Below the pieces are notes generated by a model that worked only from the letters and a program-made list of their open reading frames with translations, ran no database searches and was not told the origin of the DNA. The position numbers and the translations under genes were made by a program. Below, one piece after another: positions 1-19,290 of a DNA stretch of 64,000 nucleotides. This DNA is from an uncultured Acidobacteriota bacterium (GTDB taxonomy: Bacteria; Acidobacteriota; Thermoanaerobaculia; Multivoradales; UBA5704), in contig OY969474.1 in assembly GCA_963700145.1 (NCBI GenBank), forward strand, positions 1,216,001-1,280,000. The letters run 5' to 3'. Numbering within the stretch: position 1 is the stretch's first letter; the number at the start of each line of letters is the position of its first letter.

Positions 1-1050
1 AGTGAGCGCTGCTCTCGTTCCCTGCCACACGTGGAAGAAGCCCGGATAATGGGCGCTTAGGAGGCTCTGGAGGGTAACGCCACCCTTCTCCGCAATCTGC
101 TGCTTGAGGCGCGGCTCTTCCTCTTCATCCTCGCTCTCGGCCGGGCGACCGGTGCCGACGTATCCGAGTCCTCGGAGCAGATTGGCGTGGGCATAGATCT
201 CGATGCCCGGAAGAGTTTCAATTGTGAAGGCCAAGTCACTCAGTCTGGGAGATACGACAAGTGGATCGAACGCGAGGTAGGAGGCTACGAGTTCCGCAGT
301 GGCCCTCTGGAGATGGTCGGTCGGTCCGAGGATGCCATGAAGGTGCCGCCAGTCGAGCGTTGCCAGGGTGTCCTGCACGAAGCGGTCGATTACCGGCGCG
401 TCGCGAAGCAGTGCGTCCATATCAGCCCGTGTTGAGGCGATGCCCTCGTTGAACGCGGCTAATGTGGCGGTGGAGGGCTGCATCGCTTCGAGCCGGGCGT
501 GCACCGCTTCAGCGGCACCCTGGTAAGCCTGTACGCCCTCCGCGAGTCTCCGAATCTCGGGCTGCAGAAGCGCTGCTGTTCTCACGAGTTCAGCCCGGCT
601 CTCCATTTCCTCGAAAGCGGCAGATGCGGCCCGCTTCGCGGTAATCACCTCCTCGACTAGGGATCGCTCCATTAGCCGTCCGTAGTCACTGATCCGGTCG
701 AGCTTTTCAAGAGCGCCGGAGATAGCTCTCGTGCTGGCAATCGCCTCCTCGGCGAGGGATCGCCCCATCAGCCGCGCGCAATCCTCGGCCCGGTTGAGCT
801 CTTCAACGGCGCCGGAGACGAGTCTCGTGCTGGCAATCGCCTCTTCGGCCAAGGATCGCCCCATCAGCCGCGCGCAGTCCCCGGCCCGGTTGAGCTCTTC
901 AAGGGCGCCGGAGACGGCTCTCGTGCTGGCGATCGCTTCCTCGGCGAGGGATCGCCCCATCAACCGCCCGTGGTCCGTAAGCCGATTGAGTTCCTGAAAA
1001 GCTGCGGCAAGGGCTCCGCCGCCGAAAGAGTCTCGATAGCCGCCGTACAT
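1..1050 (-). CDS. Partial gene (runs off the left edge): N-terminal 32-aa tandem repeats followed by a putative pPIWI-associating-nuclease-like (pP_pnuc_1) C-terminal region
   Basis: Not in the ORF track; read manually. ATG at 1050 preceded by GGAGG, open with no stop to position 1. Translates MYGGYRDSFGGGALAAAFQELNRL...(RLMGRSLAEEAIASTRxVSGAxEELNR repeats)...LPGIEIYAHANLL...LQSLLSAHYPGFFHVWQGTRAALT. The family call is recalled similarity only. Confidence 0.7.
   Translation of the reverse strand, partial: MYGGYRDSFGGGALAAAFQELNRLTDHGRLMGRSLAEEAIASTRAVSGALEELNRAGDCARLMGRSLAEEAIASTRLVSGAVEELNRAEDCARLMGRSLAEEAIASTRAISGALEKLDRISDYGRLMERSLVEEVITAKRAASAAFEEMESRAELVRTAALLQPEIRRLAEGVQAYQGAAEAVHARLEAMQPSTATLAAFNEGIASTRADMDALLRDAPVIDRFVQDTLATLDWRHLHGILGPTDHLQRATAELVASYLAFDPLVVSPRLSDLAFTIETLPGIEIYAHANLLRGLGYVGTGRPAESEDEEEEPRLKQQIAEKGGVTLQSLLSAHYPGFFHVWQGTRAALT
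670..990 (-). repeat. Coding 96-bp (32-aa) tandem repeat, about 3.5 copies
   Basis: GTGCTGGC(A/G)ATCGC..GGATCGCCCCATCA recurs at 731, 827 and 923 (96-bp period), with a degenerate copy near 635-730. Confidence 0.9.
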
Positions 1051-1367
1051 GGTGCTGTCCTCCAGTTAACCCAGAGTACAACGAAGAGTTTCAAAGTCAC
1101 TATATCTTGGGCGGGCGCCCGCTGCAAGCACATTAGCTTGGGATGCCAGCTCAGGACCCCCGCACACGGCGGATCGCGGCGCGGCGCCCGCCTTGGGAGG
1201 CTCCAGCACTAGAAGTTAGGGAAGGTTTAAGGCCAAGGCGGCGCGGCCCTGGCAGAGGTCCGGGGGCGGCCTAGAGAAACCGCTAGCGTGGCGTTAGAGG
1301 GCTGGCGCAGCCCGCGCGTGGTAGGCCGTGCACACGAAACCACCGCTCCTTCCGCGTCTGCGCTGAG

Positions 1368-2684
1368 CTAGCCGCCGGGCACAGGAGCCGGTGCGGTGGC
1401 TTTGTCCAGCTCCCCGATCAGCGCGTCCGAGGCCGGGCGCTCCTTCTGCAGGCGCGCCGCCACCGTCTCGGCCTGCCGCAGCACCCGCAGCGCGTTCTCG
1501 CCGGCCAGCTTCTTGACGTCCCCCTCGCTCCAGCCGCGGCGGAGGAGCTCGGCCAGGAGCACCGGGTAGTCGGCCACGTCCTCCAGGCCGACCGGCACCG
1601 TCGTGATGCCGTCGAAGTCCGAGCCGATGCCGACGTGGTCGATGCCGGCCAGCCGCCGCGCGTGCTCGACGTGGTCGGCGACCTCGGCGAGCGTGGCGGG
1701 CGGCTCCGGGTTCGCCGTCCGCCAGGCCTCCAGCGCCGCCTTCGCCGCCTCCGGCTCGCCGGGGTGGAGGGCCTTGAAGCGCGCCTCGGCCGCGTCCTCC
1801 TCGGCCCACCACGCCCGCACCGCCTCGGAGAGGAAGCCCGGCACGAAGGTCACCATCACGACACCGCCGTTCTGCGGCAGCCGGCGCAGGACGTCGTCGG
1901 GCACGTTGCGCGGGTGGGCGTCGAGCGCCCGCGCCGAGGAGTGGGAGAAGACGACCGGCGCCGCGGCCGCGTCGAGCGCGTCGTGCATCGCCTCGGCCGA
2001 GACGTGCGAGAGGTCGACCAGCATGCCGAGGCGGTTCATCTCGCGCACCACCTCGACGCCGAAGGGCGAGAGCCCCCCGACCTTCGGCGCGTCGGTCGCC
2101 GAGTCGGCCCAGGCGGTGTTCTTCGAGTGGGTGATCGTCATGTAGCGCGCGCCGGCGGCGTAGAGCTGGCGCAGCACGGCGAGCGAGTCGGAGATGGCGT
2201 GCCCGCCCTCGACGCCGATCAGCGAGGCGACCTTGCCGGCGCGGTGGATGCGCTCGACGTCGGCGGCGGTGAGCGCCACCTCCAGCGCCTGCGGGTAGCG
2301 GGCGGCGAGGCGGTGGACGACGTCGATCTGCTCGAGGACGGCGACGGTCGGGTTGGCGATGTCGGCCGGCACGTAGACCGACCAGAACTGCGCCCCGACG
2401 CCGCCGCGCTCCAGGCGCACGAGATCGGTGTGGAGCGGCTTCTCGAGACCGCTCTGGTCCTGGCTCAGGTCGATGGCTGCGAGGTGGTTTTGGAAGCGGC
2501 TGCGCAGCTCCCACGGCAGGTCGTTGTGGCCGTCGACCAGCGGCACCTCCTCGAGGAGCGCGCGGGCCCGCGCCACCAGCTCCGCCGGCGGCGGCTGCCA
2601 CGCCGCCGCCCCGCCGTTCTGCGCCGCCGCGGCGCCCAGCCAACCCGCCGCCGCGATCGCTACCAGGACCACCGTCCGCCGCAT
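1368..2684 (-). CDS. Membrane dipeptidase (peptidase M19) with signal peptide
   Basis: VDGHNDLPW, GVEGGH, LVDLSH, FSHS and VGIGSDFDG motifs; ATG at 2684 with a GGAGG SD. Confidence 0.95.
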   Translation of the reverse strand: MRRTVVLVAIAAAGWLGAAAAQNGGAAAWQPPPAELVARARALLEEVPLVDGHNDLPWELRSRFQNHLAAIDLSQDQSGLEKPLHTDLVRLERGGVGAQFWSVYVPADIANPTVAVLEQIDVVHRLAARYPQALEVALTAADVERIHRAGKVASLIGVEGGHAISDSLAVLRQLYAAGARYMTITHSKNTAWADSATDAPKVGGLSPFGVEVVREMNRLGMLVDLSHVSAEAMHDALDAAAAPVVFSHSSARALDAHPRNVPDDVLRRLPQNGGVVMVTFVPGFLSEAVRAWWAEEDAAEARFKALHPGEPEAAKAALEAWRTANPEPPATLAEVADHVEHARRLAGIDHVGIGSDFDGITTVPVGLEDVADYPVLLAELLRRGWSEGDVKKLAGENALRVLRQAETVAARLQKERPASDALIGELDKATAPAPVPGG

Positions 2685-2756
2685 GCCGCCTCCTCCGCGC
2701 CTCGCGAGGCGCTCCGAGCCGGGCATTCTAGCCGGGAGGATCGGCGGCTACGACGA

Positions 2757-3200
2757 CTACTTCCGGACCGCCACCAGCGCGATCTCGACGCGCGCGCCGC
2801 GCGGCAGCGCGGCGACCTGCACGGTCGCCCGCGCCGGCGGCTCCGCGGGGAAGTAGGTGGCGTAGACCTCGTTCATCGCCGCGAAGTCCGCCAGATCGGC
2901 GAGGAAGACCTGCGCCTGGACGACCTCGCCCAGGGAGAACCCGGCGGTGGCGAGGACGGCCTTCAGGTTCTCGAGGGCGCGCCGGGTCTCCGCCTGGATC
3001 CCACCCGGGACCAGCTCGCGGGTCGCCGGATCGAGGCCGAGCTGACCGGCCAGGTAGAGCGTGTCGCCGGCGCGGAAGGCCTGCGAGTAGGGCCCGATCG
3101 CCTGCGGCGCCTCCGGAGTAGAGACCGGCCCCCAGGTGTGGACTTCGACCGTGCAGCCGGCAATCGTGAGCGCGAGAAGGAAGGCTGCTGGGAGATTCAC
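2757..3200 (-). CDS. RidA/YjgF/UK114 family enamine/imine deaminase with an N-terminal lipoprotein-like signal
   Basis: APQAIGPYSQA, LYLAGQLGLDP, MNEVYATYF, PARATVQVAALP and VEI motifs; the N-terminus ends in IAGC. Confidence 0.9.
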   Translation of the reverse strand: MNLPAAFLLALTIAGCTVEVHTWGPVSTPEAPQAIGPYSQAFRAGDTLYLAGQLGLDPATRELVPGGIQAETRRALENLKAVLATAGFSLGEVVQAQVFLADLADFAAMNEVYATYFPAEPPARATVQVAALPRGARVEIALVAVRK

Positions 3201-3211
3201 GGCCTTAATCG

Positions 3212-6109
3212 TTAGGGGACCGGGTGGAGTACATCGACGAAGACAATTCGCTGGATGAGGTCGTCAGACTCCGTTTCGTCGGACTTCAGTTCGAGATCGA
3301 TCCCGCGCTGGAAACGGCCGGGATCGATGCCGTGACTGGTGATGAGATAGCTCGACACTTCGTCGGCGCGGAGGTTGGCGAAACCTTCCGGTTTCTCTTC
3401 CTCGCCGGCGTCGCCTTGAGCGGTAACCCGAACGATTAGCTCGGAGTCTTTCTTCAGTATCTCCGCTACTTCGTCGAGGCTAGCCCTTGCAATATCGTCC
3501 AGATAGCTGCTGCCTTCTATGAAGTAGATCGTTGTCCTCTGGTATGTCGGCAGGGGTGGGGGTGGAACAGAAAAATATTGCTCCCAAGCGCGTATGTTCT
3601 CTTCGATAATGTCTAGATCGGCGCCCTCATCGTCCACCCGGTCGCCCATCGCGGCGATCCAGCTCAGTATTGTCGACATCTCTTCGTTAGATGCCAGCGT
3701 TATGATTTGCTCATAACGTTCCTGCAGTTCACGTACCCGGATCGCGCGCATTTCGGAGCTGGTTGGTTCAGATCTTGTTGTGGAGATTTCACCTGCCCCT
3801 GCATCCGCCGCAAGTGGAAGGGAAACCGTCGAGGATATGGGCGCAGGGCCCGTGGAGGGTGCAGTCTCTGTGCGGGAGATGGGAGGAGTCCCTTCAGACA
3901 AGGCACCTTCAGACGAGGCATTTCTCGACGGAGTGCCCTCAGACGAGGCGGACGCCACCTTGTCGGGAGGCAGCCCGCTCCGGTCCACCCACTCGAAGTT
4001 ACTGATCCCTAGAACGCCATCCTCCGGAGCGGCGTCACGCACGTAGTACCAGCTCCCGCGGGCGGACTCGGGCAGGTCGAGCGAAGCCGGCAGTCGCGGA
4101 AGGCGCTGAGTTTTGGCTCCTACGAGATCTTTCGGAACATCTCGCCACCGCGCATTGCCTACCACCCCGACCCGAACTGACCCCGTTCGTGCTCCCGGAC
4201 CGCGTAGCCGCAGTTCGTACCTCGTCTCCTGTCGGACCGACACCTCGCGGGTGAAGGCGGGCAAGGCATCCGGCAGCGCCACGACTGCTAAGAGGGCCGC
4301 CAGGAGCGCCGTTACGCTCGCCGTCCAGCCCGGAGATGGAAGACGGCGCCAACCGAGGGCGGTCCGGAATGCGCGGTCGCGGATCGGCAAGAGCACCTGC
4401 CGCCGAAGGCTTCGCGCCACCCAGCCCGATATGGGTGGCTCGAGCCCCGCGGCGCTCCGGACCGTCAGCTCCTCGACGGCATCCCCGACCAGGCCGGCCA
4501 GGGGGCCTTGCGCAAGATCGGCCAGCTCGGCCAGGGCCGTGGCCTCGCGCCCGGGAACTCGGATCTCCTGCAAGGCTCGGTCGAATCGCCAGCGCTCGTA
4601 GGCGGCAGTGCCAACCTGCGGTTCGGAGGCGGCGACAAGATCTGCGAGGAAGGCGTGGACTTCGCCGGATGCAGGGGGCAGGCCGAGAGACGCGGCGAGG
4701 GGCGGAGCCTCGAGCGCTTCGAACAAGGCCGCCGGGGGGACGTGGGGGCAGAAACGTTGGCGGAGCCGCTCCAAGAGGGTGGGATCCGGCCGGGGAGCCC
4801 GGGCTAGAAGCCAGCGGAGGCGGTCTATGTCGAGTGGAGTGACCGGACGGTCCGCGGCGGTGCGATAGGTCGCGCGGGACGGCGCGCCAGGGCGGCCGTG
4901 CCGGAGGTGACGGGCGACGGCGAGAAGGCCCTCGGCGGTCATAGGCCAGATGGGAGTCTTCAGCACCTCCGGCCGACGCAGCACCGAATGCCAGGAGCCG
5001 GGGTCGCCCACTGGGTGCAGCCAGGCACGATGCGGCCAGGCCGCGAGCTGCTCGACCCACGGTGCGACCTGCCCCTCCCAGCCGCGGAGAACGCCCGCTC
5101 CCGTGCTGATCACCAGCAGTGGGCTCAAGGCACGTAGCCGGGCAAGCTGTCGAAGCGAGATCTCGGGATCGCCGAGTGAACGGAACACGCGGTCGGCGTC
5201 GGCATGGAACTGCCAGCGGTCGAGGGGGGCGCCGCGCGCCGCGAGACCGGCGAGGAGCGAGGAGATGCGGCTTTGCAAGGGCGCCATCTCGGAGCCGATG
5301 TCCTCCAAGACGACAACCGGGGGCGCCACCGCGCGGGAGCGGAAAACTACGTGAGGGGCGAGCCCGGCGCGCAGGGTGTTTTGCAGCGTACGGTTGACGT
5401 CTAAATCGCCGTATCGAGGGGACATTGGGGTCCGCTGTCCCAGAAGGGCGGCCGCTTCCTCCAGAACCGCGGTCGAGAAGGGGGGTGTTATGTCCCCCAC
5501 CTCGATCTCGTACCCCTGGGGGTTAGGCAACTCTTCCAGCATTTCGTGCCAGCGCTGACGAGCGGCGCGCTCCGTCGCTCGCCGCAGGCGGACTCGGTAG
5601 AGCGCAAGCAGGAGGCCGCCCGCGATGCCGGCGGCGCCTGCCAGCACGCGCTTTCGATCAGGCTGGGGATAGGTGTCCGGGATCAGCGGTAGACGCTCTT
5701 TCCCGTCCGCCGGTGGCTCGCTGGGACGGGAAGCGATCGGCTGCGGCGGTGGTGGGTCGGGTCGCGGCCAGAGCCAAGCGCCGATGACGAGGCCGAGGGC
5801 AATGATCGCCGCGACCCCCAGGAGGGCCAGCCGGGGGAAGCGCCGCTCCTGCGGTTCCTCGGGGGGTGGGGGCGGCTTGGGTTCCTCGGCGGGCCGCAGG
5901 TACAACTCATTGAAGACCTCACGAACCTTTTCCACCTCCTCCGGACTGCGCGCTAGGAGGGCGGCGAGCGCGTCGCGTAGCGAGTCGACGTCCGTGTCAT
6001 CCCACCGCGAGAGGAGACGGGCCACGGCCAGATGTTCCCGCAGGCCGATGTCTAGCTCGCGCTCCTGAAGGAGCTTGAGGAGATCGGCCAGAGGCAGGGG
6101 CTTGACCAT
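3212..6109 (-). CDS. vWA (CoxE-like) component of a MoxR ternary system, with TM helices and a C-terminal OmpA-like domain
   Basis: Helical N-terminus; two hydrophobic segments; DLDVNRTLQNTLRAG, VVVLEDIGSEM, LLVISTG and WPHRAWLHP (vWA-like); a third TM; S/T/P-rich linker; TIYFIEGSSYLDDIARASLDEVAEILK...RADEVSSYLITSHGIDPGRF (OmpA C-like). Confidence 0.75.
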   Translation of the reverse strand: MVKPLPLADLLKLLQERELDIGLREHLAVARLLSRWDDTDVDSLRDALAALLARSPEEVEKVREVFNELYLRPAEEPKPPPPPEEPQERRFPRLALLGVAAIIALGLVIGAWLWPRPDPPPPQPIASRPSEPPADGKERLPLIPDTYPQPDRKRVLAGAAGIAGGLLLALYRVRLRRATERAARQRWHEMLEELPNPQGYEIEVGDITPPFSTAVLEEAAALLGQRTPMSPRYGDLDVNRTLQNTLRAGLAPHVVFRSRAVAPPVVVLEDIGSEMAPLQSRISSLLAGLAARGAPLDRWQFHADADRVFRSLGDPEISLRQLARLRALSPLLVISTGAGVLRGWEGQVAPWVEQLAAWPHRAWLHPVGDPGSWHSVLRRPEVLKTPIWPMTAEGLLAVARHLRHGRPGAPSRATYRTAADRPVTPLDIDRLRWLLARAPRPDPTLLERLRQRFCPHVPPAALFEALEAPPLAASLGLPPASGEVHAFLADLVAASEPQVGTAAYERWRFDRALQEIRVPGREATALAELADLAQGPLAGLVGDAVEELTVRSAAGLEPPISGWVARSLRRQVLLPIRDRAFRTALGWRRLPSPGWTASVTALLAALLAVVALPDALPAFTREVSVRQETRYELRLRGPGARTGSVRVGVVGNARWRDVPKDLVGAKTQRLPRLPASLDLPESARGSWYYVRDAAPEDGVLGISNFEWVDRSGLPPDKVASASSEGTPSRNASSEGALSEGTPPISRTETAPSTGPAPISSTVSLPLAADAGAGEISTTRSEPTSSEMRAIRVRELQERYEQIITLASNEEMSTILSWIAAMGDRVDDEGADLDIIEENIRAWEQYFSVPPPPLPTYQRTTIYFIEGSSYLDDIARASLDEVAEILKKDSELIVRVTAQGDAGEEEKPEGFANLRADEVSSYLITSHGIDPGRFQRGIDLELKSDETESDDLIQRIVFVDVLHPVP

Positions 6110-6121
6110 GCCAGCTCCCGT

Positions 6122-7012
6122 TCAGGCCGCGGGCGGCCTCACGCGGTGCTGGTCTTCCTGCACTTTGAGTAACGCGCAAATATAGGGGAGGTCGCGAAGC
6201 TCCCCCTCGAGCTCCCCATCGGTCACCCGCGCGTGGTGGAGGATCCGAGCCCAGGTCAACATTTCGCTGGTCGACGGTTCCTTGAGAAGTCCTGGGAATT
6301 CGCGGAGCGCGGTAAAACGTCTGACGATCCGCTCGGCTAGTGCCCGGGTCAGCTCCAGATGTCCCAGCCGCTCTTGCAGGATGGCGAGGAGACTGTGTTC
6401 GTCTGGCGGCTCGATGTGATGGAAGACGCAGCGACGCAGGAATGGATCGGGGAGCTGGCTCTCGCGGTTGCTGGTGATCACGACGACGGGACGATGGCGC
6501 GCAGGCTCCGCGATGTCCAGCTCCGGGATGCGGAGCTCCATGCGGTCGAGCGCGTTCAGGAGATCGTTCGGGAAGTCGCGTGGCGCCTTGTCGACTTCAT
6601 CGATGAGCACCACTTTGCGCTCCTCAGATCGGAACGCACGCCCGAGAGGACCGAGGCGTAGGTAGTTGCCGCGGTCGCGGGCGTGCGGATCGCTGACCTG
6701 CGCGTCGTAGAAGCGCTGCAGGTTGTCGATTTCATAAAGAAGGTCCCTCCCCTGATGGTCGCTGCGCACGGCAAAAACCTCGACGTCGCCGAGCTCAAGC
6801 TCCGCGGCGATCGAGAAGGCGAGCACGGTCTTGCCTGTCCCGGCCTTACCGGTGACGAGTAAAGGTTGCTCCACTGCCAGGGCGGCGTTGACGGCGTTGA
6901 CCAGCGCTGGGGAGGCAAGATAGCGGCCGCGCTCGCCCGGTGTGGGGACAGACCGCCCGTCGCGAGTGGTGCCGTTACCCCGATACTGCCGGAACTCGGG
7001 CATCTGGCTCAT
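6122..7012 (-). CDS. MoxR-family AAA+ ATPase
   Basis: PLLVTGKAGTGKT (Walker A), VVLIDEVDKAPRDFPNDLL (Walker B), ITSNRESQLPDPFLRRC; ATG at 7012 overlaps the upstream stop (ATGA). Confidence 0.93.
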   Translation of the reverse strand: MSQMPEFRQYRGNGTTRDGRSVPTPGERGRYLASPALVNAVNAALAVEQPLLVTGKAGTGKTVLAFSIAAELELGDVEVFAVRSDHQGRDLLYEIDNLQRFYDAQVSDPHARDRGNYLRLGPLGRAFRSEERKVVLIDEVDKAPRDFPNDLLNALDRMELRIPELDIAEPARHRPVVVITSNRESQLPDPFLRRCVFHHIEPPDEHSLLAILQERLGHLELTRALAERIVRRFTALREFPGLLKEPSTSEMLTWARILHHARVTDGELEGELRDLPYICALLKVQEDQHRVRPPAA

Positions 7013-8361
7013 GCTCCCTCCTCGGCGGAACACAGCCGCTCCGCGATACGCGCCAGTATGTCGGCCGAATGGTGAGCGCCTTCCAGGACGTCCCGCACAA
7101 GCTCCGTCGTCTCGTTAACCTGGGCTTTGGGCAACGACTCGGCCCAGGACTCGACGTGTTTGCGGGTGATGGGTTTGAGAGGCGGTAGCAGAAAGACCGG
7201 AAGCCGCTCATGAGCTACAGCGCGGAGCTCGTGGAGTGCCTTCTTGGTCTCCTGCGGTGTGGATTTCGGCGCCAGAGGCGACGGCGACCAGTCGACGCCC
7301 TGGACTGCTTTGAGCACGCCGCGCGTGGCGCCCAGCTCCCCCAGCAGCTCCGGCAGCCAGCGGGAGTAGTAGAGCACCAGCGCCTCGTCCCGCAGGCGTG
7401 CCGGTATCACGGGCCGATGCACGAGAACAAGATTGCCGTCGCGCAACCAGAGGCGAAGGGCGTCTTTCAGCGCAGCCTTCTCCGAGGTCTGGCTGCGCAG
7501 TGCCTGAGCCAGGGCGCGGTAGAACTCGTCCTTGTCACGAGGGATCTTTGCCCCCCAGAATACTTTTCGAATGCGCCTCTCCGGCTTGTCCGGGAAACAC
7601 TCTTCGACCGTGTCCAGAAAGTAGTTGTGCCCCTCGCCCCGACGCCCGACGACAAACAAGGCCTCGTGCTCCGTCTTAGCGGCGTGGGTCTCGATCTTCA
7701 TCCACTGCTCGGTGCGGTCGCAGCCCCACACCGCTCGCCCTGGCCCCCAGCGGGCGATCCTGGCGGCGCGCCACTCCTCTTCCGCCGGCGTCCCGGGCAG
7801 CAGAGCCACACCAGAGCCTCCGTCGACTTCTCGGCACGCCTCACGCCCCTTTCTGTCCCACTCCTCTCGCTTGCCAGGTTCCTTCTCCCGAAGGCCGCAG
7901 CAGAGTCGCCAGAACCGTGAGAAGTCCGATTCCTGCTCGTCGTGCCACGAGATGTGCAGATGGCCAAGAAAGTCGATCGGGATCTGGCCCGGGGTGAGGG
8001 GGGAGCGCAACACGGCGATTTTGCGTCGCGCAATTTCCTGGCCGAAGATGAGCACCTCATAGCTGCTCCACTGGCTTTGGAGCGAATTCTCACTGAGCAC
8101 GAACACGGCCTGTGCGCTGCCCAAGAGAGCCTGATAGATCTGGTCCTGGACCGAACCACCAGCCCGCATGCGCTCCTCGTCAAGCCAGACGAGAAACCCC
8201 GCCGCCTCGAGCCTTTTCCTCAACCAAGTGACGAATTCGCGATCTTCGTGGGCGTAGCTGATGAAGACGTCGTAGCGGAGAGAGCGGAGACCGACTGGAG
8301 CGGAGTTGTCGCCAAGCACGGCAAAGATGAATTCTACTGTAGCGGAGGGCTTGCTCTCCAT
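7009..8361 (-). CDS. TIR domain fused to an inactive-STAND (iSTAND)-like domain
   Basis: YDVFISYAHEDREFV, VWLDE and SLQSQWSSYEV (TIR with a catalytic-position Glu); C-terminal CDRTEQW...LFVVGRRGEGH degenerate P-loop region. Exact start uncertain. Confidence 0.8.
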   Translation of the reverse strand: MESKPSATVEFIFAVLGDNSAPVGLRSLRYDVFISYAHEDREFVTWLRKRLEAAGFLVWLDEERMRAGGSVQDQIYQALLGSAQAVFVLSENSLQSQWSSYEVLIFGQEIARRKIAVLRSPLTPGQIPIDFLGHLHISWHDEQESDFSRFWRLCCGLREKEPGKREEWDRKGREACREVDGGSGVALLPGTPAEEEWRAARIARWGPGRAVWGCDRTEQWMKIETHAAKTEHEALFVVGRRGEGHNYFLDTVEECFPDKPERRIRKVFWGAKIPRDKDEFYRALAQALRSQTSEKAALKDALRLWLRDGNLVLVHRPVIPARLRDEALVLYYSRWLPELLGELGATRGVLKAVQGVDWSPSPLAPKSTPQETKKALHELRAVAHERLPVFLLPPLKPITRKHVESWAESLPKAQVNETTELVRDVLEGAHHSADILARIAERLCSAEEGA

Positions 8362-8401
8362 GGATGCATAGTCATTTCGCCATGCAGCTGCCTTCGAGCT
8401 C

Positions 8402-9076
8402 TCATGCCAGCAGCCGTGGCCCGACGGCCTGGACGACCAGGTCGGCGGCGAAGTGCGCGGCGATGGCGGCCTCGATCCCCCAGCGCCAGTAGACGAGCCC
8501 CAGGAAGCCGCCGGCGACGCCGTTGAGCAGCAGGACGGCGGCGATCAACGCCGCCGACACCTGCGTCGCGGCCAGCCAGGCCGGGACGTGCGCGCCGGCG
8601 AAGGCGAGAGTGGAGACGAGGTTGGCGATCCCGACCTGGAGCGGCGTCGCGGCGACGGGCCCCCGGCGCCAGGCGCGGGCGGCGAGCCAGACGACGAGCG
8701 TGAAGAGGAAGAGGCGGAAGACCAGCTCCTCGAGGACCGAGGCCTCGACGGCGAGGGCGAGCGGCATCCAGGCGGGCGCCTGCGCGCGCGGCCGCAGCCG
8801 GGCGGCGAGCGCGGGCTCCAGCGGCACCAGCGCGTAGACGAGGACGGCCAGGACGACCGCGCCGACGAGCGCGCCGAGGACGAGCGCGGCGGCGAGGCGC
8901 CCAGGCCGCACGGGCGGCCGATGCCCGAGGCGGCGGGCCATGGCGAGGCCGAGGACGATGAGGACCGCGCCGGCGGCGAGCGCCGCCGCGAAGGGCCCCG
9001 GCCGGATCGGACGCGGGCTCGCCACCCAGGCGGCGACGCCGAGGAGCCCGAAGAGGACGCCGGCGGTCCTGGCCAA
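8402..9076 (-). CDS. CPBP/Abi (CAAX protease-like) intramembrane glutamic endopeptidase
   Basis: EELVFR, FAGAH and YWRWGIEAAIAAH motifs; multiple TM segments. Confidence 0.88.
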   Translation of the reverse strand: MARTAGVLFGLLGVAAWVASPRPIRPGPFAAALAAGAVLIVLGLAMARRLGHRPPVRPGRLAAALVLGALVGAVVLAVLVYALVPLEPALAARLRPRAQAPAWMPLALAVEASVLEELVFRLFLFTLVVWLAARAWRRGPVAATPLQVGIANLVSTLAFAGAHVPAWLAATQVSAALIAAVLLLNGVAGGFLGLVYWRWGIEAAIAAHFAADLVVQAVGPRLLA

Positions 9077-9079
9077 GGC

Positions 9080-9655
9080 TCAGCCGAGCGCCAGGACGAA
9101 GTCGAAGGCGGCGGCCTTGCCGCCGGCGGCGTCCCGCACCGCCATCAGGAGACGACGATCGTAGAGCCCGTCCCGGGCGTTGCGCGGCTCGCCGGGGAAG
9201 TAGAGCTGCGTCGTCAGGACCCGGCGGTGGGGCGCCTGCACCTTGACGTGGAAGTGGCGCGTGCGGCCGGTGTAGACGCCCGGCACGATGCTCTCGAGCC
9301 TGTAGCGCCCTTGCGCGTCGGTGAACTGGTGGCCGCGGCATTTGTAACCGGCGTTGTCGTAGCGGCCCCGGTCGTCGGCGTGCCAGAAGTCAACCAGCGC
9401 GCCGGCGACCGGCTTGCAGTCCGTGGTCAGCACGGAGCCCGAGACGACGATCGGCGTTCCTGCGATCCCCGGCTCGCGGAGCGACGTGCGCTGCGGCGAG
9501 TCCGGCGTGTAGAAGGGCCCGGTCGTCTGCGCCTGCGTGAGGTCGTCGCCGTCGTCGCACGGCGGGGTCGCCGCCAGGGCCTGGCTGCCGGGCGCGAGCA
9601 CGAACGGCGCCGGCGCCAGCAAGGCGAGGAGCCGCAAGAAGAGGCGCCGGGTCAT
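9080..9655 (-). CDS. Intradiol ring-cleavage dioxygenase family protein with Tat-like signal
   Basis: MTRRLFL start overlaps the upstream stop; TTGPFY, VDFWHAD..GRY and VPGVYTGRTRHFHVKV (Tyr/His iron ligands). Confidence 0.9.
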   Translation of the reverse strand: MTRRLFLRLLALLAPAPFVLAPGSQALAATPPCDDGDDLTQAQTTGPFYTPDSPQRTSLREPGIAGTPIVVSGSVLTTDCKPVAGALVDFWHADDRGRYDNAGYKCRGHQFTDAQGRYRLESIVPGVYTGRTRHFHVKVQAPHRRVLTTQLYFPGEPRNARDGLYDRRLLMAVRDAAGGKAAAFDFVLALG

Positions 9656-10959
9656 GCTTTCGGCAGACCTCTCTCCAGCACCGCCTCCATCGCCGCGACG
9701 AAGCGGTCGATCTCTTCGAGGGTCGTGTAGACGCTCGGCGTGACGCGCAGGCCGCGGAACTCCGAGTGGACGATCGGCGTCACCAGGATGCGGTGCTTCT
9801 TCCACAGGTGATCGGCCAGCTCCTGCGGCTCGATGCCCACCGCCTCGACAGTCGCCAGGCCGCAGGCGAGGCCGGGCTTCAAGCTGGTGTGGAGGCGCGC
9901 CTTCGGATGAGCGGCGAGGCGCTTCGCCCAGCGGTCGCGCAGGTAGACCAGCCGCGCCGCCTTCCGCTCCGGGCCGATGCCGGCGTGGAAGGTGAGCGCC
10001 TCGGCGATCGCCAGGTAGGGCGCCGCCGGATGGGTGCCGATCTCCTCGAACTTGCGGATGTCGCCGTCGAGCTCGGCCGCCGCCGGCATCAAGGGCCAGA
10101 GCGCGGGGATGCGGTCGCGGCGCACCATCAGCATGCCCGTGCCGTGCGGGGCGAAGAGCCACTTGTGGAGGCTGGTCGCGTAGTAGTCGCAGCCGAGGTC
10201 GGCGTGGCGGAAGGGGAAGTGGGCGAAGGCGTGGGCGCCGTCGACGATGACCGGCAGACCGCGCCGCCGCGCCATCTCGACCACCCGCCGCACCGGCAGG
10301 ATCTGCCCGGTGAGATTGATCATGTGGCACATGAGGACGAGGCGCGTGCGCGGCGTGATGTTTCGCTCGAAGAGAGCGACGACCTCGTCGGGGTCTTCGG
10401 CCGGCACGGGAAGCGCGAACTGCCGCAGCACGACGCCGTGGCGGCGCTCGAGCTGCCGCCAGGCGGTGAGCATGCGCGGGTAGTCCTGGGTCGTCGTCAG
10501 CACCTCGTCGCCGGCCTGGAGGTCGAAGCCCAGCTGGCAGATCTCGAGCCCTTCGGAGGCGTTGCGCGTCAGCGCCACCTCCTCGGGGTCGCAGCCGAAG
10601 GCGGCGGCGAGCCGCTGCCGCACCGCCTCGCGCTGCGGCTCGAGCACCTGCCACATGGTGTAGGCCGGGGCCTCGTTCGAGTAGTCGACGTGGCGCCGCT
10701 GGGCCTCCAGCACCAGCCCCGGCGAAGGGGAGACGCCGCCGTTGTTGAGGTTGACGATGCTGCGGTCGACGCGGAACGCTTGCTGCACCTCGAACCAGAA
10801 CGCCTCGTCGGCGGCCAGCTCCTCCGGCGCGCCGGGGCGGCCGGCCACCGCGGCCAGCGCCCGCCGCGCGCCGGCGGCGTCGAGGGCCGCCAGCGCCAGG
10901 CCGGCGGCGGCCGGCCGGGCGAGTGCGGCGAAGAGCTCGCGGCGGCTGAAGGCGCTCAT
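9652..10959 (-). CDS. PLP-dependent aminotransferase class V (cysteine desulfurase / isopenicillin-N epimerase-like) with Tat signal
   Basis: SRRELF Tat motif; NLNNGG, TRNASEG, VDGAH and ATSLHKW (PLP lysine); GGAGGT SD. Confidence 0.92.
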   Translation of the reverse strand: MSAFSRRELFAALARPAAAGLALAALDAAGARRALAAVAGRPGAPEELAADEAFWFEVQQAFRVDRSIVNLNNGGVSPSPGLVLEAQRRHVDYSNEAPAYTMWQVLEPQREAVRQRLAAAFGCDPEEVALTRNASEGLEICQLGFDLQAGDEVLTTTQDYPRMLTAWRQLERRHGVVLRQFALPVPAEDPDEVVALFERNITPRTRLVLMCHMINLTGQILPVRRVVEMARRRGLPVIVDGAHAFAHFPFRHADLGCDYYATSLHKWLFAPHGTGMLMVRRDRIPALWPLMPAAAELDGDIRKFEEIGTHPAAPYLAIAEALTFHAGIGPERKAARLVYLRDRWAKRLAAHPKARLHTSLKPGLACGLATVEAVGIEPQELADHLWKKHRILVTPIVHSEFRGLRVTPSVYTTLEEIDRFVAAMEAVLERGLPKA

Positions 10960-11066
10960 GAAGGGACCTCCGGAGATGTCAAGTGATCCTAGCGCAGAGT
11001 CACGGCACGCCAAGTGCGGAAGCTTGCCGGGGAGTACGCTAGCGCCGCTCGCCCGGAGCTGCCTGC

Positions 11067-12392
11067 ATGGACCGCTGCCGCACCATCGTCTGGACCCTCG
11101 CCGTACTGCTGGCAGGGGCCATCGCGCCGGCGCCCGGGCGGAGCCAAGCCGGCGGCCCGCCCCCCTCGGTCGTCATCGCCGCCGCCGGCGACATCGCCTG
11201 CGACCCGGGCGACGCCAACTACAACGGCGGCGCCGGCACCGCCACGGCCTGCCGCATGGCGGCCACCTCCGACCTGCTGCTGTCGCTCGCTCCCGACGCG
11301 GTCCTCACGCTCGGCGACAACCAGTACGAGAACGGCACGCTCGCCAAGTACCAGGCCTCGTACGATCCGAGCTGGGGGCGCCTGAAAGCGATCACCCTTC
11401 CGGTCCCCGGCAACCACGAGTACCTGACCGCCGGCGCCGCCGGTTACTTCGCCTACTTCGGCGCCGCCGCCGGCACCGCCGGCCAGGGCTGGTACAGCGT
11501 CGACCGCGGCGGCTGGCACCTCGTCGCGCTCAACTCCAACTGCGCCGCCGTCGGCGGCTGCGACGCCGCCTCGCCGCAGGGGCAGTGGCTGGCGGCCGAC
11601 CTCGCCGCCCACCCGGACGTCTGCACGCTCGCCTTCTGGCACCACCCGCGGTTCTCCTCCGGCCCGCACGGCAACGACGCCACCACGCAGCCCTTCTGGG
11701 ACGCCCTCTGGGCGGCCGGTGCGGACGTCGTCTTGAACGGCCACGACCACATCTACGAGCGCTTCGCGCCGCAGCGGCCGGCCGGCGTCGCCGACCCGGC
11801 CGGGCCGCGGCAGCTCACCGTCGGCACCGGCGGCAAGAACCTGACCGGCGTCGTCGCCGTGCAGCCGAACAGCGTGGCGCGCCACGCCGCGAGCTTCGGC
11901 GTCCTCGAGCTCACTCTCTACGGCAACGGCTACGAGTGGCGCTTCGCGCCGCTCGCGGGCTCGACCTTCCACGACGCCGGCGCCGCCTTCTGCCACAGCG
12001 CGCCGGCGCCGCCCCCGGCCGACTTCTACACCCTGCCGCCCTGCCGGCTGGCCGACACCCGCCGCCCCGCCGGGCCGAGCGGGGGGCCGGCCCTCGCCGC
12101 CGGCGCGATGCGCGCCTTCCCCGCCGCCGGCGCCTGCGGTGTCCCGGCCGACGCCCTGGCGGTGGCGGCGAACTTGACCGTCGTCGCGCCGAGCGGCGGC
12201 GGTCACCTCACCGCGTTCGCCTGGGGCGCGCCGGTGCCGGGAACCAGCACGCTCAGCTTCAACGCCGGGAAGGTCCGCGCCAACAACGCGATCGTCGGCC
12301 TCGGCGTCGGCGGCAAGCTGGCGGTGGCCGCCTCCCTGCCGCCGAGCGGCTCTACCCACCTGGTCGTCGACCTCTTCGGCTACTTCCGCTAG
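11067..12392 (+). CDS. Secreted calcineurin-like metallophosphoesterase with C-terminal PCRLxDTR module
   Basis: AAGDIA, LGDNQY, PGNHEY, WHHP and NGHDHIYER motifs; C-terminus FYTLPPCRLADTR...HLVVDLFGYFR. Confidence 0.9.
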   Translation: MDRCRTIVWTLAVLLAGAIAPAPGRSQAGGPPPSVVIAAAGDIACDPGDANYNGGAGTATACRMAATSDLLLSLAPDAVLTLGDNQYENGTLAKYQASYDPSWGRLKAITLPVPGNHEYLTAGAAGYFAYFGAAAGTAGQGWYSVDRGGWHLVALNSNCAAVGGCDAASPQGQWLAADLAAHPDVCTLAFWHHPRFSSGPHGNDATTQPFWDALWAAGADVVLNGHDHIYERFAPQRPAGVADPAGPRQLTVGTGGKNLTGVVAVQPNSVARHAASFGVLELTLYGNGYEWRFAPLAGSTFHDAGAAFCHSAPAPPPADFYTLPPCRLADTRRPAGPSGGPALAAGAMRAFPAAGACGVPADALAVAANLTVVAPSGGGHLTAFAWGAPVPGTSTLSFNAGKVRANNAIVGLGVGGKLAVAASLPPSGSTHLVVDLFGYFR

Positions 12393-12403
12393 CGGACCAC
12401 TTT

Positions 12404-12431
12404 GCGGAGCCCGGAGAATGGGCTCCGCTAC
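12404..12431 (-). repeat. Single GTAG-type REP-like palindrome
   Basis: Reverse strand reads GTAG-CGGAGCCC-ATTCTCC-GGGCTCCG, just downstream of the phosphoesterase stop. Confidence 0.55.
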
Positions 12432-12525
12432 CCGCAGGGTCGCCGGCCGGAGCCGGCGGTTGATCCGCGGGTTCGAGCGCAGGAATCGGATGGCGGGGCG
12501 CCCGCGGCTGGCGTAGCCTGGCGCC

Positions 12526-13578
12526 ATGTTGGAGCACGCGACGATCGACCCCGAAACCGCCTGGACGGCCGTCCTCGCCCGCGACGCGGGGCGCGACGGG
12601 AGCTTCGTCTACGCCGTTGCCTCGACCGGGATCTACTGCCGCCCTTCGTGCCCGTCGCGGCGGCCGCGGCGGCCGCAGGTCGCCTTCTTCCCGACGCCAG
12701 ACGCCGCCGAGGGCGCCGGCTACCGCGCCTGCCGCCGCTGCCGGCCGCGCGAGGCTGCGGCCGGCGCCGCCGCGGTGGCGCGCGCCTGCGCCTGGATCGA
12801 CGCCCATCCCGACGAGCCGGTGTCTCTCGCCGAGCTGGCGCGCGCCGTGGGGCTCTCGCCGGCGCACCTGCAGCGCACTTTCCGCCGGGCGACCGGCGTC
12901 ACCCCGAAGCAGTACGCCGACGCGCGCCGCCTGGCGCGTCTCAAGGACCGACTCCAGAAAGGAGACGACGTGACCACCGCCCTCTACGACGCCGGCTACG
13001 GCTCGAGCAGCCGCCTCTACGAGCGCTCCGACGCGCGCCTCGGCATGACCCCCGCCACCTACCGCCGCGGCGGCCGCGGCATGCGCATCCGTTTCGCCTG
13101 CGCCGACTCGCCGGCCGGGCGCCTCCTCGTCGCCGCCACCGAGCGCGGCCTCTGTGCCGTGCAGCTCGGGGAGGACGACGACGCCCTCGAAGCGGCGCTG
13201 CGCCGCGAGTTCCCGGAGGCCGAGATCGCCGCCGACGCCGCCGGGCTCGGCGCCCTGGTCGCCGCGGTTTTGGCGCGCCTCGACGCCGGCCCCTCACCCG
13301 CCCTGCCGCTCGACGTCCGCGCCACCGCCTTCGAGCAGCGCGTCTGGGCGGCGCTCCAGGAGATCCCGCCCGGCACGACCCGCACCTACGGCGAGGTGGC
13401 CGCGTCCCTCGGCCGCCCGGGCGCCGCCCGCGCCGTGGCCCGCGCCTGCGCCGCCAACCCGGTGGCCCTGGTGGTGCCCTGCCACCGCGTGGTGCGCGGC
13501 GACGGCGGCCTCGGCGGCTACCGCTGGGGGGAGGAGCGGAAGCGGCGTCTCCTGGCGCGCGAGCGGCGGGCGTTGTAG
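12526..13578 (+). CDS. ada: Bifunctional transcriptional activator / O6-methylguanine-DNA methyltransferase Ada
   Basis: STGIYCRPSC and YRACRRC Zn site, AraC HTH, VPCHRVV active site. Confidence 0.96.
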   Translation: MLEHATIDPETAWTAVLARDAGRDGSFVYAVASTGIYCRPSCPSRRPRRPQVAFFPTPDAAEGAGYRACRRCRPREAAAGAAAVARACAWIDAHPDEPVSLAELARAVGLSPAHLQRTFRRATGVTPKQYADARRLARLKDRLQKGDDVTTALYDAGYGSSSRLYERSDARLGMTPATYRRGGRGMRIRFACADSPAGRLLVAATERGLCAVQLGEDDDALEAALRREFPEAEIAADAAGLGALVAAVLARLDAGPSPALPLDVRATAFEQRVWAALQEIPPGTTRTYGEVAASLGRPGAARAVARACAANPVALVVPCHRVVRGDGGLGGYRWGEERKRRLLARERRAL

Positions 13579-13691
13579 GACGGGCACCGACGGCGGCTCG
13601 GCGGACTTACCGACAGCGATCTCCGCCCTCCGCCGATGAGCGAGGCACCGGTGCGCACCTACAGTGCGGTCAGCCAAGAGGAGACCAAGCC

Positions 13692-14708
13692 ATGATGACC
13701 GCGCAAGCCGCCACCGTTGCCCGCCTGCCGAACCCAGCGCCGCCAGCACCGCTCGCCGCCGCGCGCGGCAGCAGCGTCGAGGTGAGCCTCTTCGAGGGGC
13801 CGCCCATCTGCGGCTCGGTCGGCCTCTTCAACCCGCGCTCCCCGCAGTTCCTGATCCACCGCAACGGCACCGACATACGGGCGCGGCAGGTGGTGCCCTT
13901 CGAGCGCGTGCGGCACGTCGCCTTCCTGGGGAACCCGCCGCCCGACGGCATGACGATCTCCGCCGCCTACCGCGTGGTGCGGCTCCGCCTGCTGGATGGC
14001 ACGGAGGTCGAGGGCCTCTCCCATAGCTGGGGCGGGCTGCGCCAGGGGATCTTCCTCCGTCCGATCGGCCGGCGCGGGGTCGAGCGCCTCTACGTGCCGG
14101 CTTCCGCCGTCAGCGAGGTGGCCGCGGTCCAGGACCTCGGCACGCTCCTCGGCGGCCGCAAGTTCGCGACGATGGAGATGGTGGAGGCGGCGCTCGCCGA
14201 GCAGCGGGCGCTCGCCGCGGCGCGGCCAAGGCCTGTGCCGGCGCCGCCGCCGGCGAAGGCCGGCTCGGCGCGCACCGCCGTCCGCCTCGGCGAGATCCTG
14301 GTCTCGCAGGGCGCCATCACGCTGCAGGAGCTCGGGCACGCGCTCGCGGCGCAGGCCGGCCGCGCCGGCCGGCGGCTCGGCGAGCTGCTCGTCGAGCTGG
14401 GGATCGCCAGCCACAAGATGGTGGCGATCGGCCTCGCGGCGCAGCACGGCATCCCCTACCTCACCCTGCGCGGCCATCCGGTCGATCCGGCCCTGCGCAA
14501 CGTTCTCCCCGCCGAGCTGGCGCGCCGCTACCAGGCGATGCCGGTGCAGCACGCGGCGGGGCAGCTCACCGTGGCGGTCGCCGATCCGGGCGAGCCGGCC
14601 TTCGCGGCCGCCCTGCGCGCCGCCACCGGTCTCGCCATCACCCCGGCGGTGGCAACGCCGCAGGACATCGCGGGCGCCATCCGCGAGCTCTACGGAGCGG
14701 CCCAATGA
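13692..14708 (+). CDS. Stand-alone MshEN (GspE/PilB N-terminal) domain protein, putative c-di-GMP receptor
   Basis: ATG at 13692 after AGGAG; RLGEILVSQGAITLQELGHALAAQ and RLGELLVELGIA motifs, then a T2SSE_N-like fold; stops with no ATPase domain. Confidence 0.8.
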   Translation: MMTAQAATVARLPNPAPPAPLAAARGSSVEVSLFEGPPICGSVGLFNPRSPQFLIHRNGTDIRARQVVPFERVRHVAFLGNPPPDGMTISAAYRVVRLRLLDGTEVEGLSHSWGGLRQGIFLRPIGRRGVERLYVPASAVSEVAAVQDLGTLLGGRKFATMEMVEAALAEQRALAAARPRPVPAPPPAKAGSARTAVRLGEILVSQGAITLQELGHALAAQAGRAGRRLGELLVELGIASHKMVAIGLAAQHGIPYLTLRGHPVDPALRNVLPAELARRYQAMPVQHAAGQLTVAVADPGEPAFAAALRAATGLAITPAVATPQDIAGAIRELYGAAQ

Positions 14709-14717
14709 GCGCCCCGG

Positions 14718-15485: not shown

Positions 15486-15496
15486 CCAGCCGGGCG

Positions 15497-17419: not shown

Positions 17420-17486
17420 GGCGCGCGCCCCCGGCGCGGGAGGACGGCAGATTCTAACAGCGACCTGACATACACTCCGCGCGCTC

Positions 17487-19178: not shown

Positions 19179-19221
19179 AGCAATGAGCCCGTGACGGGAG
19201 CCCGTGACGGAACCGGCAGAC

Positions 19222-19290
19222 TCTGACACGCTCGTCGACCAGCTGCCCGAGAACAAGCTCCTGACGGCGCGCCGCTTCCTCTAGTACTCA
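19222..19290 (+). pseudogene. Remnant of a small antitoxin-like gene
   Basis: Reads TLVDQLPENKLLTARRFL*Y with no start codon; resembles 'LHxLVDxLPExELxxARRFLEYL' small antitoxins (recalled similarity). Confidence 0.35.

Follow-up and report, generated by a model that had tools for sequence, protein, structure and literature searches.

The closest described relatives of the locus reported here are the iSTAND ternary systems, in which an inactive STAND (iSTAND) protein, a MoxR-type ATPase and a vWA protein are encoded together. They were defined as vWA-MoxR subsystem 2 by Kaur, Burroughs, Iyer and Aravind (eLife 2020, PMC7159879) and the description was extended a year later (eLife 2021, PMC8195603). 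In the passages of the 2020 paper that set out domain architectures, TIR domains occur at the N-termini of iSTAND proteins, the MoxR ATPase is without extensions and a CoxE-like four-helix N-domain is present. Approximately 28% of the iSTAND systems are reported there to have N-terminal transmembrane (TM) segments on the vWA component. The same passages describe TM-preceded OmpA, PEGA, PASTA and Sel1 modules on the vWA subunit, and action near the membrane and cell wall. Here we consider a three-gene operon from an uncultured Acidobacteriota bacterium, located in a 64,000-nucleotide stretch of contig OY969474.1 (assembly GCA_963700145.1, positions 1,216,001 to 1,280,000). This whole stretch is referred to as the window, and positions are counted from its first letter. 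The operon very probably encodes an iSTAND-type MoxR-vWA ternary conflict system, with a putative role against invaders that is read from its sequence.

A three-gene operon

The operon occupies 5.1 kb and consists of three open reading frames (ORFs) on the same strand:

7009..8361, minus strand: g1, TIR-iSTAND protein, 450 aa
6122..7012, minus strand: g2, MoxR-type AAA+ ATPase, 296 aa counted from the ATG
3212..6109, minus strand: g3, predicted three-pass membrane vWA protein, 965 aa

None of the three frames is interrupted, and the genes are tightly coupled. Reading the strand sequence, the g1 stop and the g2 start overlap as ATGA, and 12 bases separate the g2 stop from the g3 ATG. A previous sequence-only reading of this DNA had pointed to this coupling and to an AT-richer patch, and both are borne out. 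The patch has a GC content of 0.57-0.70 in 500-bp windows, compared with 0.72-0.79 in its flanks. The contrast is greater still at third codon positions (GC3), with values of 0.77 for g1, 0.77 for g2 and 0.74 for g3 against 0.97, 0.92 and 0.94 for the nearby M19 peptidase, RidA and aminotransferase genes. Scans for promoters and terminators yielded no usable result, the single promoter-like site on the operon strand lying inside the start of g1.

Several lines of evidence lead to the class assignment. It is made because the TIR, AAA_5, VWA_CoxE and OmpA matches exceed their Pfam cut-offs, and because the iSTAND profile matches both this copy and a majority of its homologues while the Walker residues of g1 are absent. 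It is also made because the folds match (RPP1 and then ORC/Cdc6 for g1, Z 9.0-9.2 for the vWA domain and Z 14.6 for the OmpA-like domain) and because the gene order is kept. The iSTAND/MoxR/vWA assignment put forward in the sequence-only reading is therefore supported by domain matches, homologues, folds and gene order alike. That reading had also proposed a survey for the same three-gene architecture. The nine related loci that were fetched amount to seven distinct ones, since two pairs gave identical alignments. The g1-g2 adjacency is present in all seven and g3 comes next in six, the contig of the seventh ending after the MoxR gene.

The TIR-iSTAND protein

Two parts of g1 can be told apart:

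7927..8274, minus strand: TIR domain, residues ~30-145 (TIR_2, E 4e-22, residues 32-142), with Glu E102 at the catalytic position
7012..7794, minus strand: inactive STAND module, residues ~190-450 (PF19995 match and motifs from the homologue alignment)

The TIR domain is matched by phmmer to AbTIR, an NAD+ nucleosidase (NADase) of Acinetobacter, with an E of 1.4e-9, and E102 falls opposite the Glu of the W-x-x-x-E motif. Judging by chain offsets, the AbTIR residue aligned to E102 would be E208, and an E208A variant of AbTir is described as inactive in the relevant part of PMC10641520. E102 is invariant in 25 of 25 aligned g1 homologues. With a TIR fold and a Glu at the catalytic position, as the sequence-only reading had held, g1 has what is expected of an enzymatic TIR and is a candidate NAD+ nucleosidase. 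Partial PADLOC and NCBIfam matches (Thoeris ThsB and others) are limited to this part of g1 and are far from qualifying; ThcB4, for example, scores 33.9 bits where 220 are needed.

The remainder of g1 looks like a STAND module that has lost its nucleotide-handling residues. The Walker A position reads G-R-R-G-E-G-H, without Lys-Ser/Thr, and the Walker B position reads L-V-L-V-H-R-P, without Asp/Glu. The homologue alignment indicates that the whole g1 family lacks the P-loop Lys and the Walker B acid. A match to the iSTAND profile had been anticipated, and this was upheld only in part. Pfam PF19995 does match residues 214-314 with an E of 2e-4, but its 22.2 bits fall short of the cut-off of 24, and the match appeared only when the C-terminal 300 residues of g1 were scanned alone. 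There was no PF19995 match to full-length g1 at E<=0.1, nor anywhere in the organism's own genome at E<=0.01. Because the score is under the cut-off, membership of g1 in the iSTAND family rests on its homologues and its fold.

An exhaustive search with the g1 iSTAND region returned 142 representative clusters at E<=1e-3. A domain scan was made of 105 sequences, namely the query and 104 of these clusters, leaving aside 12 short fragments and the 26 weakest. PF19995 was found in 61 of the 105 at E<=1e-3. The commonest head is TIR_2 (65/105), with EAD1 in six and kinase, SAVED, caspase, trypsin, CHAT, PNP and REase domains in one or two each. The AlphaFold2 model of g1 has a mean predicted local distance difference test (pLDDT) score of 79. 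Its best Foldseek match is the plant TIR-NLR RPP1, which aligns over the whole length (7dfv_B, E 8.3e-10, TMq 0.31, root-mean-square deviation (rmsd) 19.4 A), followed by isolated TIR domains and ORC/Cdc6. In other words, g1 is a TIR head on a dead STAND module without sensor repeats.

The MoxR-type ATPase

The second gene encodes the best-conserved component, with 69-78% identity across the related loci. Its AAA_5 match has an E of 1.2e-11 and its motifs are intact (Walker A G-K-A-G-T-G-K-T, Walker B V-L-I-D-E). The motifs W-x-h-a-p-G and P-s-W-R-x-a define the extensions of the MoxR ATPases of VMAP systems in the account given in PMC7159879. To judge from its sequence, g2 lacks these N- and C-terminal extensions: it is short, at 296 aa, and there is no Trp at all in the 45 residues preceding Walker A.

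The NCBIfam model MadB_ATPase also matches g2 (E 1e-23), far under the family cut-off. Literature searches combining MadB with MadA/AAA or MoxR found no paper explaining this name. Elsewhere in the same genome, two loci (L109/L110 at ~73 kb and L112/L113 at ~2.48 Mb) have MadB_ATPase matches of E 6.8e-34 and 1.8e-16, likewise under the cut-off. Their matches are as good as or better than that of g2, and these loci may be further MoxR-like systems.

The vWA protein

The third gene encodes a protein of many parts, listed here from the N-terminus:

5900..6091, minus strand: four-helix N-domain, residues 7-70, predicted cytoplasmic (model helices 7-16, 23-34, 41-52 and 56-70)
5585..5836, minus strand: TM1 (92-113), a Pro-rich and presumably periplasmic loop, and TM2 (~152-175) (hydropathy peaks 2.52 and 1.76; model helices 92-113 and 152-192)
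4895..5332, minus strand: vWA domain, residues ~260-405 (VWA_CoxE, 27.3 bits, cut-off 26.4)
4367..4837, minus strand: helical linker domain, residues 425-581 (eight helices in the model)
4265..4327, minus strand: TM3, residues 595-615 (hydropathy 2.10; model helix 595-615)
3986..4252, minus strand: beta-sandwich adjoining the membrane, residues 620-708, predicted periplasmic (strands at pLDDT 73-88)
3572..3976, minus strand: disordered Ser/Pro-rich linker (712-780) and three helices (784-846) (linker pLDDT 31-40; GC 0.55)
3218..3553, minus strand: OmpA-like peptidoglycan-binding domain, residues 853-964, predicted periplasmic (Pfam OmpA, 31.1 bits, cut-off 27.2)

Hydropathy identifies three hydrophobic segments (~92-113, 155-173 and 595-615), and the AlphaFold2 model, which has a mean pLDDT of 76, puts helices in the same places. 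Arg-rich stretches precede TM1, follow TM2 and precede TM3. With three TM helices and the positive-inside rule, residues 1-90 and 175-595 are predicted to be cytoplasmic and the last 350 residues periplasmic. The description of this subunit as having three TM segments and a C-terminal OmpA-like domain had been made beforehand, and it agrees with the hydropathy, the modelled helices, the Pfam matches and the folds.

Homology searches found 31 relatives of g3, of which 29 were aligned after dropping one partial sequence and one marginal match. These have the first ~600 residues in common. The four-helix N-domain is conserved across them and matches the CoxE-type 4-helix N-domain as it is described in PMC7159879. 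VWA_CoxE is found in 22 of the 29 at E<=0.01. A g3-family profile searched against the sequences of solved structures retrieved no vWA relative, only chance matches at E>=0.5, and the identity of the domain was therefore backed by structure comparison. VIA-align superposes it on the vWA domain of CMG2 (Z 9.2, rmsd 2.8, 123 aligned), on the MIDAS of Rea1 (Z 9.1, rmsd 3.5, 155 aligned) and on the MIDAS of MDN1 (Z 9.0). The metal site is degenerate, with D-I-G-S-E-M in place of D-x-S-x-S and S-T-G in place of T-D-G after strand 4. Only the most distant g3 homologue keeps D-x-S-x-S. A helical linker of vWA proteins was named vWA-L by Kaur et al. in 2021 (PMC8195603), and the helical linker of g3 is probably the same element.

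An exchangeable, predicted periplasmic module

The part of g3 that is predicted to lie in the periplasm begins with a beta-sandwich (residues 620-708) that is conserved across the whole g3 family and includes the stretches W-Y-Y-x-R and L-x-I-S-N. It matches no Pfam family, and a search of the ESM Atlas with residues 612-715 gave no usable match. Being constant, unlike the swapped module at the end of the protein, the beta-sandwich could be the real transducer. Within the disordered linker that follows (window 3891-3950, g3 residues ~720-740), a 15-nucleotide unit is repeated three times at 80-100% identity (repeat family D4), giving an S-S-E-G-like peptide repeat.

The OmpA-like domain was recognized by its fold. 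A phmmer search of the C-terminal 204 residues of g3 against solved structures gave a weak OmpA match (E 0.079), and the fold searches were decisive instead. VIA-align gives Z 14.6 to 9uu2 (rmsd 2.1 A, 105 aligned) and Z 14.2 to 3td3 of A. baumannii, and Foldseek gives E 8.9e-6 at a TMt of 0.74, with TMt values of 0.74-0.78. In OmpA-like domains, an Asp and an Arg hold the diaminopimelate moiety of the ligand. Both have counterparts in g3, where G-D-A-G supplies the Asp opposite T-D-S of 5wtp and L-R-A-D the Arg opposite n-R-A-D. The N-x-x-L-S motif lacks its Asn.

What the 29 homologues carry at this end is far from uniform. TIG is present in four, OmpA, PEGA, TPR and CarboxypepD_reg in two each, and CAP, SLT and C39 peptidase domains in one each. 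The closest g3 core (69% identity) carries TPR rather than OmpA, and a tblastn search with the OmpA module found no match in any of the seven distinct related loci. Close relatives keep the core and exchange the periplasmic module like a cassette, which is an addition to the published description. The C-terminal module of g3 also has a GC content of 0.55-0.57, compared with 0.70 in the rest of the gene, and this fits a separate and recent origin of the cassette.

A predicted contact between the vWA domain and the iSTAND region

One clue to how the components might work together comes from complex prediction. The cytoplasmic part of g3 (residues 175-595) was modelled with the iSTAND region of g1 (residues 151-450), alongside three controls. 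The model of the pair scored 0.85, and the best of the three controls scored 0.00. For comparison, 58 of 80 solved complexes and 2 of 110 mismatched pairs attain this mark. At least 77% of the contacts are common to the three runs, and the partner has a pLDDT of at least 76. The modelled interface on the vWA domain comprises residues 271-276, 302, 312-313, 341-346 and 374-376. These are loops of the face that bears the metal site in other vWA domains, with the loops after strands 1 and 4 (residues 271-276 and 341-346) in contact. The predicted contact loops of g1 are residues 263-272 and 286-289. The model supports binding in which the iSTAND region would dock on that face.

Distribution and acquisition

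The operon is found in few relatives of its host. The iSTAND region is present in none of four same-genus genomes, in five of 36 same-family genomes and in none of 24 genomes that belong to the order's other families. Full-length relatives among named records come from Acidobacteriota metagenome-assembled genomes (MAGs), one labelled to phylum only and three Thermoanaerobaculia. Across the related loci, iSTAND is the most divergent part of the core (34-67% identity). The organism's own genome (5.46 Mb) has one iSTAND copy. It has nine further matches to the TIR domain alone (E 3.7e-13 to 1.7e-6; L082-L088 and two other places), two of them with an in-frame stop and none with an iSTAND region.

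The same-strand flanks are housekeeping genes. Genes for a dioxygenase and a CPBP/Rce1-like membrane protease come before g1, and genes for RidA and an M19 dipeptidase follow g3, with an aminotransferase gene nearby. The gap in front of g1 measures 40 bp and the one behind g3 11 bp. The CPBP/Rce1-like intramembrane protease gene (window 8402-9076, minus strand; PF02517, E 1.8e-10) is the upstream neighbour that ends at the first of these gaps. It was weighed as a possible fourth component but set aside, because its GC3 of 0.97 is host-like and seven of seven related loci lack it. In a same-genus genome it is missing together with the operon at the same spot.

The interval between RidA and the class-V aminotransferase gene (window 2757-10654, compared with L107 and L108) varies within the genus. 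In one same-genus genome RidA is directly adjacent to the dioxygenase gene where the present genome has the operon, and in another RidA abuts the aminotransferase gene. The interval is empty in one relative and holds the dioxygenase gene with ~2.4 kb of other DNA in another; here the dioxygenase and CPBP genes lie in it together with the three-gene system. This differing content makes the spot a variable one and the operon an insertion or a presence/absence polymorphism. No tRNA gene was found in window 1-20000 and no convincing direct repeat flanks the operon, so there is no sign of the mode of insertion. The operon has been acquired horizontally. Patchy distribution, foreign GC3, an empty site in a same-genus genome and a differing periplasmic module fit the behaviour of a conflict system.

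Further away, at window 12402-14708 on the plus strand, is an ORF with a C-terminal MshEN domain (E 1.6e-20). A GspE-type ATPase gene adjoins the related operon in locus L001, which is probably a coincidence.

A possible mechanism and its rivals

What might such an operon do? Class membership, acquisition and mechanism taken as a whole form the best explanation we can offer, and on balance a probable one. The mechanism by itself is more tentative and slightly easier to doubt than to accept. It is that a TIR-iSTAND protein docked on vWA may be released by MoxR, with NADase activity as output and the periplasmic module as input or anchor. The analysis shows the domain identities, the structure of the operon and the exchange of modules, and it predicts the topology and the contact between vWA and iSTAND; the direction of signalling, the role of MoxR and the NADase output are what we infer. 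The vWA protein would be an inner-membrane scaffold: the N-domain, vWA domain and helical linker on its cytoplasmic side, the beta-sandwich and a peptidoglycan-tied OmpA-like module on its periplasmic side. At rest, the dead STAND module would hold the TIR-iSTAND protein against the metal-site face of vWA and so keep the TIR heads apart. A disturbance reported by the exchangeable periplasmic module might travel through TM3 and the helical linker, whereupon the MoxR ATPase would spend ATP to remodel or strip the vWA-iSTAND complex. The freed TIR domains could then self-associate and cleave NAD+. Either NAD+ would be depleted or an ADP-ribose-derived signal would be made, and the infected cell would be stopped. 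TIR is favoured as the output because E102 is invariant in all 25 homologues and the operon has no other effector gene and no receptor for a TIR product. It is also favoured because OmpA, PEGA, TIG and TPR modules are non-catalytic and hard to see as effectors.

A more specific proposal, which goes further toward the sequence-only idea of sensing from outside, is distinctly unlikely as it stands. In this proposal the peptidoglycan-bound OmpA module, on its long flexible tether, would report a local breach or pulling of the wall at phage entry. The signal would pass through TM3 and the linker to the metal-free vWA domain, on whose ligand face TIR-iSTAND would be held, and MoxR-driven release would let the TIR domains assemble into an NADase.

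Several observations weigh against the preferred mechanism or against the assignment on which it builds. Some relatives carry enzymes (SLT, C39 peptidase) at the periplasmic end, which fits an effector better than a sensor. Those who described the class regard iSTAND as the sensor and the vWA C-terminus as the effector (the pertinent part of PMC8195603; PMC12839542). The topology of g3 is a prediction only, and the PF19995 score of g1 is below its cut-off. The degenerate metal site makes ligand binding in the usual metal-bridged mode impossible. Enrichment of conservation at the predicted interface was sought and none was found: interface and remainder scored 0.636 and 0.654 for vWA, 0.616 and 0.650 for iSTAND, and 0.310 and 0.376 for a broad iSTAND set. 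Random residue sets reached the observed means in 3298, 3975 and 4763 of 5000 draws, respectively. Literature searches found no bench study of any iSTAND/MoxR/vWA system; the relevant papers among the matches listed (for iSTAND the best 25 of 125, most of them about an unrelated Food and Drug Administration programme) were computational. The PADLOC check that had been suggested for this operon also came out negative at system level. PADLOC-DB v2 matches only components, namely the TIR part (PDC-S66, ThsB and others) and the P-loop part (TRIP13, IetA), and nothing in g3.

The preferred direction of signalling can be reversed. Perhaps iSTAND senses an invader, such as nucleic acid, in the cytoplasm, MoxR-vWA sets an ATP-dependent threshold and TIR makes a nucleotide-derived signal. 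The C-terminal module of vWA would then be a deployed effector or a mere anchor in the cell wall. We consider this unlikely overall, but it is the rival to be taken most seriously. It agrees with the prediction of iSTAND as 'the invader-sensing component' in the pertinent part of PMC8195603 (likewise PMC12839542), and with the naming of OmpA and PEGA modules as 'effector domains' where Kaur et al. (2020, PMC7159879) discuss them. Enzymes at the vWA C-terminus of some relatives (SLT transglycosylase, C39 peptidase, CAP) point the same way, and the divergence of iSTAND relative to MoxR (34-67% versus 69-78% identity) would be expected of a surface that meets invaders. However, OmpA, PEGA, TIG, TPR and CarboxypepD_reg have no catalytic activity that could serve an effector. 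The retention of the TIR Glu in 25 of 25 homologues, in an operon without a TIR-product receptor, also makes TIR look like the terminal output. The modelled position of iSTAND on the ligand face of vWA is compatible with either wiring, and the data here do not choose between a relay from the outside and the opposite wiring favoured by those who described the class.

Two other explanations do without an immune function. The MoxR and vWA proteins could be a chaperone pair like CoxD/CoxE or RavA/ViaA that matures or maintains an envelope complex, with TIR-iSTAND as its client or adaptor. The vWA domain does fit a CoxE-type model, the operon lies among housekeeping genes (M19 dipeptidase, RidA, dioxygenase, aminotransferase), and MoxR-vWA pairs known as chaperones are mentioned in the relevant part of Kaur et al. 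(2020, PMC7159879). This is nonetheless very unlikely, because a patchy distribution (0/4 same-genus genomes), foreign codon usage, a hypervariable C-terminal module and a TIR domain that retains its catalytic Glu are what conflict systems typically show, and a housekeeping chaperone would not be expected to have them. Alternatively, the operon might be a decaying or inert remnant of horizontal transfer without current function, as its degenerate vWA metal site, its iSTAND score under the Pfam cut-off and its atypical composition might suggest. This is hardly credible given three intact and tightly coupled frames, a TIR catalytic Glu and MoxR Walker motifs that are all in place, and a degenerate metal site and dead P-loop that are family-wide and hence ancestral rather than the result of recent decay.

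Comparison with known systems and meaning

The sequence-only reading had regarded a TIR head and a TM/OmpA tail as unusual. This did not hold, since both are already in the architectures described in PMC7159879 and TIR_2 heads 65 of the 105 iSTAND-region homologues. The likeness to the systems of Kaur et al. is in fact close. It extends to the same three components in a tight operon, an N-terminal TIR head on iSTAND, a small MoxR that lacks VMAP-type extensions, and a CoxE-type vWA protein with a 4-helix N-domain, N-terminal TM segments, a helical linker, a TM-preceded OmpA and a variable C-terminal module. There are also differences. The named relatives found here are Acidobacteriota MAGs, including Thermoanaerobaculia, whereas the word 'acidobacteria' is absent from the 2020 main text (its source-data tables may list the exact architecture). 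A degenerate vWA metal site and a predicted docking of iSTAND there do not appear in the passages of the published descriptions that deal with these subunits.

Activation of a TIR NADase through induced oligomerization is the output of TIR-NLRs. Plant TIR-NLRs such as RPP1 (PDB 7dfv/7crc) resemble g1 in having TIR followed by a STAND-type NTPase fold, and are its best whole-length structural matches. However, g1 has neither sensor repeats nor a working P-loop, so that it could not switch itself by nucleotide exchange, and a separate MoxR and vWA partner are encoded beside it. Midasin/Rea1 (with Rsa4/Ytm1 UBL; PDB 6qta, 8ql1) provides a parallel for the remaining two components. It joins a MoxR-clade ATPase to a vWA/MIDAS domain that grips its client by the metal-site face, which is the face of the predicted iSTAND contact, and the g3 vWA domain superposes on it at Z 9.0-9.1. 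In contrast to Midasin/Rea1, g3 lacks the metal-binding serines and the second Asp, the ATPase and vWA are separate proteins, and the client would be an immune-type TIR protein.

An envelope-anchored defence sensor has a precedent in Zorya. Its ZorAB component (PDB 8qyd) sits in the inner membrane and carries an OmpA/MotB-like peptidoglycan-binding domain in the periplasm, and the OmpA-like domain of g3 superposes on ZorB with Z 7.9. Unlike Zorya, the g3 system has no MotAB-like ion-driven motor and its cytoplasmic machinery is other; sequence kinship is confined to the OmpA-like fold. Thoeris (ThsB), Retron-TIR and SPARTA share with g1 a TIR domain with a catalytic Glu. They differ in that the present operon has no ThsA-like receptor, Argonaute or reverse transcriptase, and its scores for these families are far under the cut-offs.

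Both the TIR head and the TM-OmpA tail, like the rest of the architecture, are found in the published descriptions cited above, and the operon is a good further example of a class described from genomes in 2020. Two things are added to the published description besides the exchange of periplasmic modules. One is the predicted contact between a dead STAND module and the ligand face of a metal-less vWA domain, and the other is that, within a genus, one chromosomal spot is clearly polymorphic for the presence of the operon. A compact three-gene copy with a recognizable input-side domain and output enzyme would also be a convenient test case. If signals do run from the outside in, specificity should lie in the exchanged periplasmic module. 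A receptor of that kind, if real, would give bacteria an equivalent of the Toll-like receptor, with a threshold set by a chaperone and with plug-in ectodomains.

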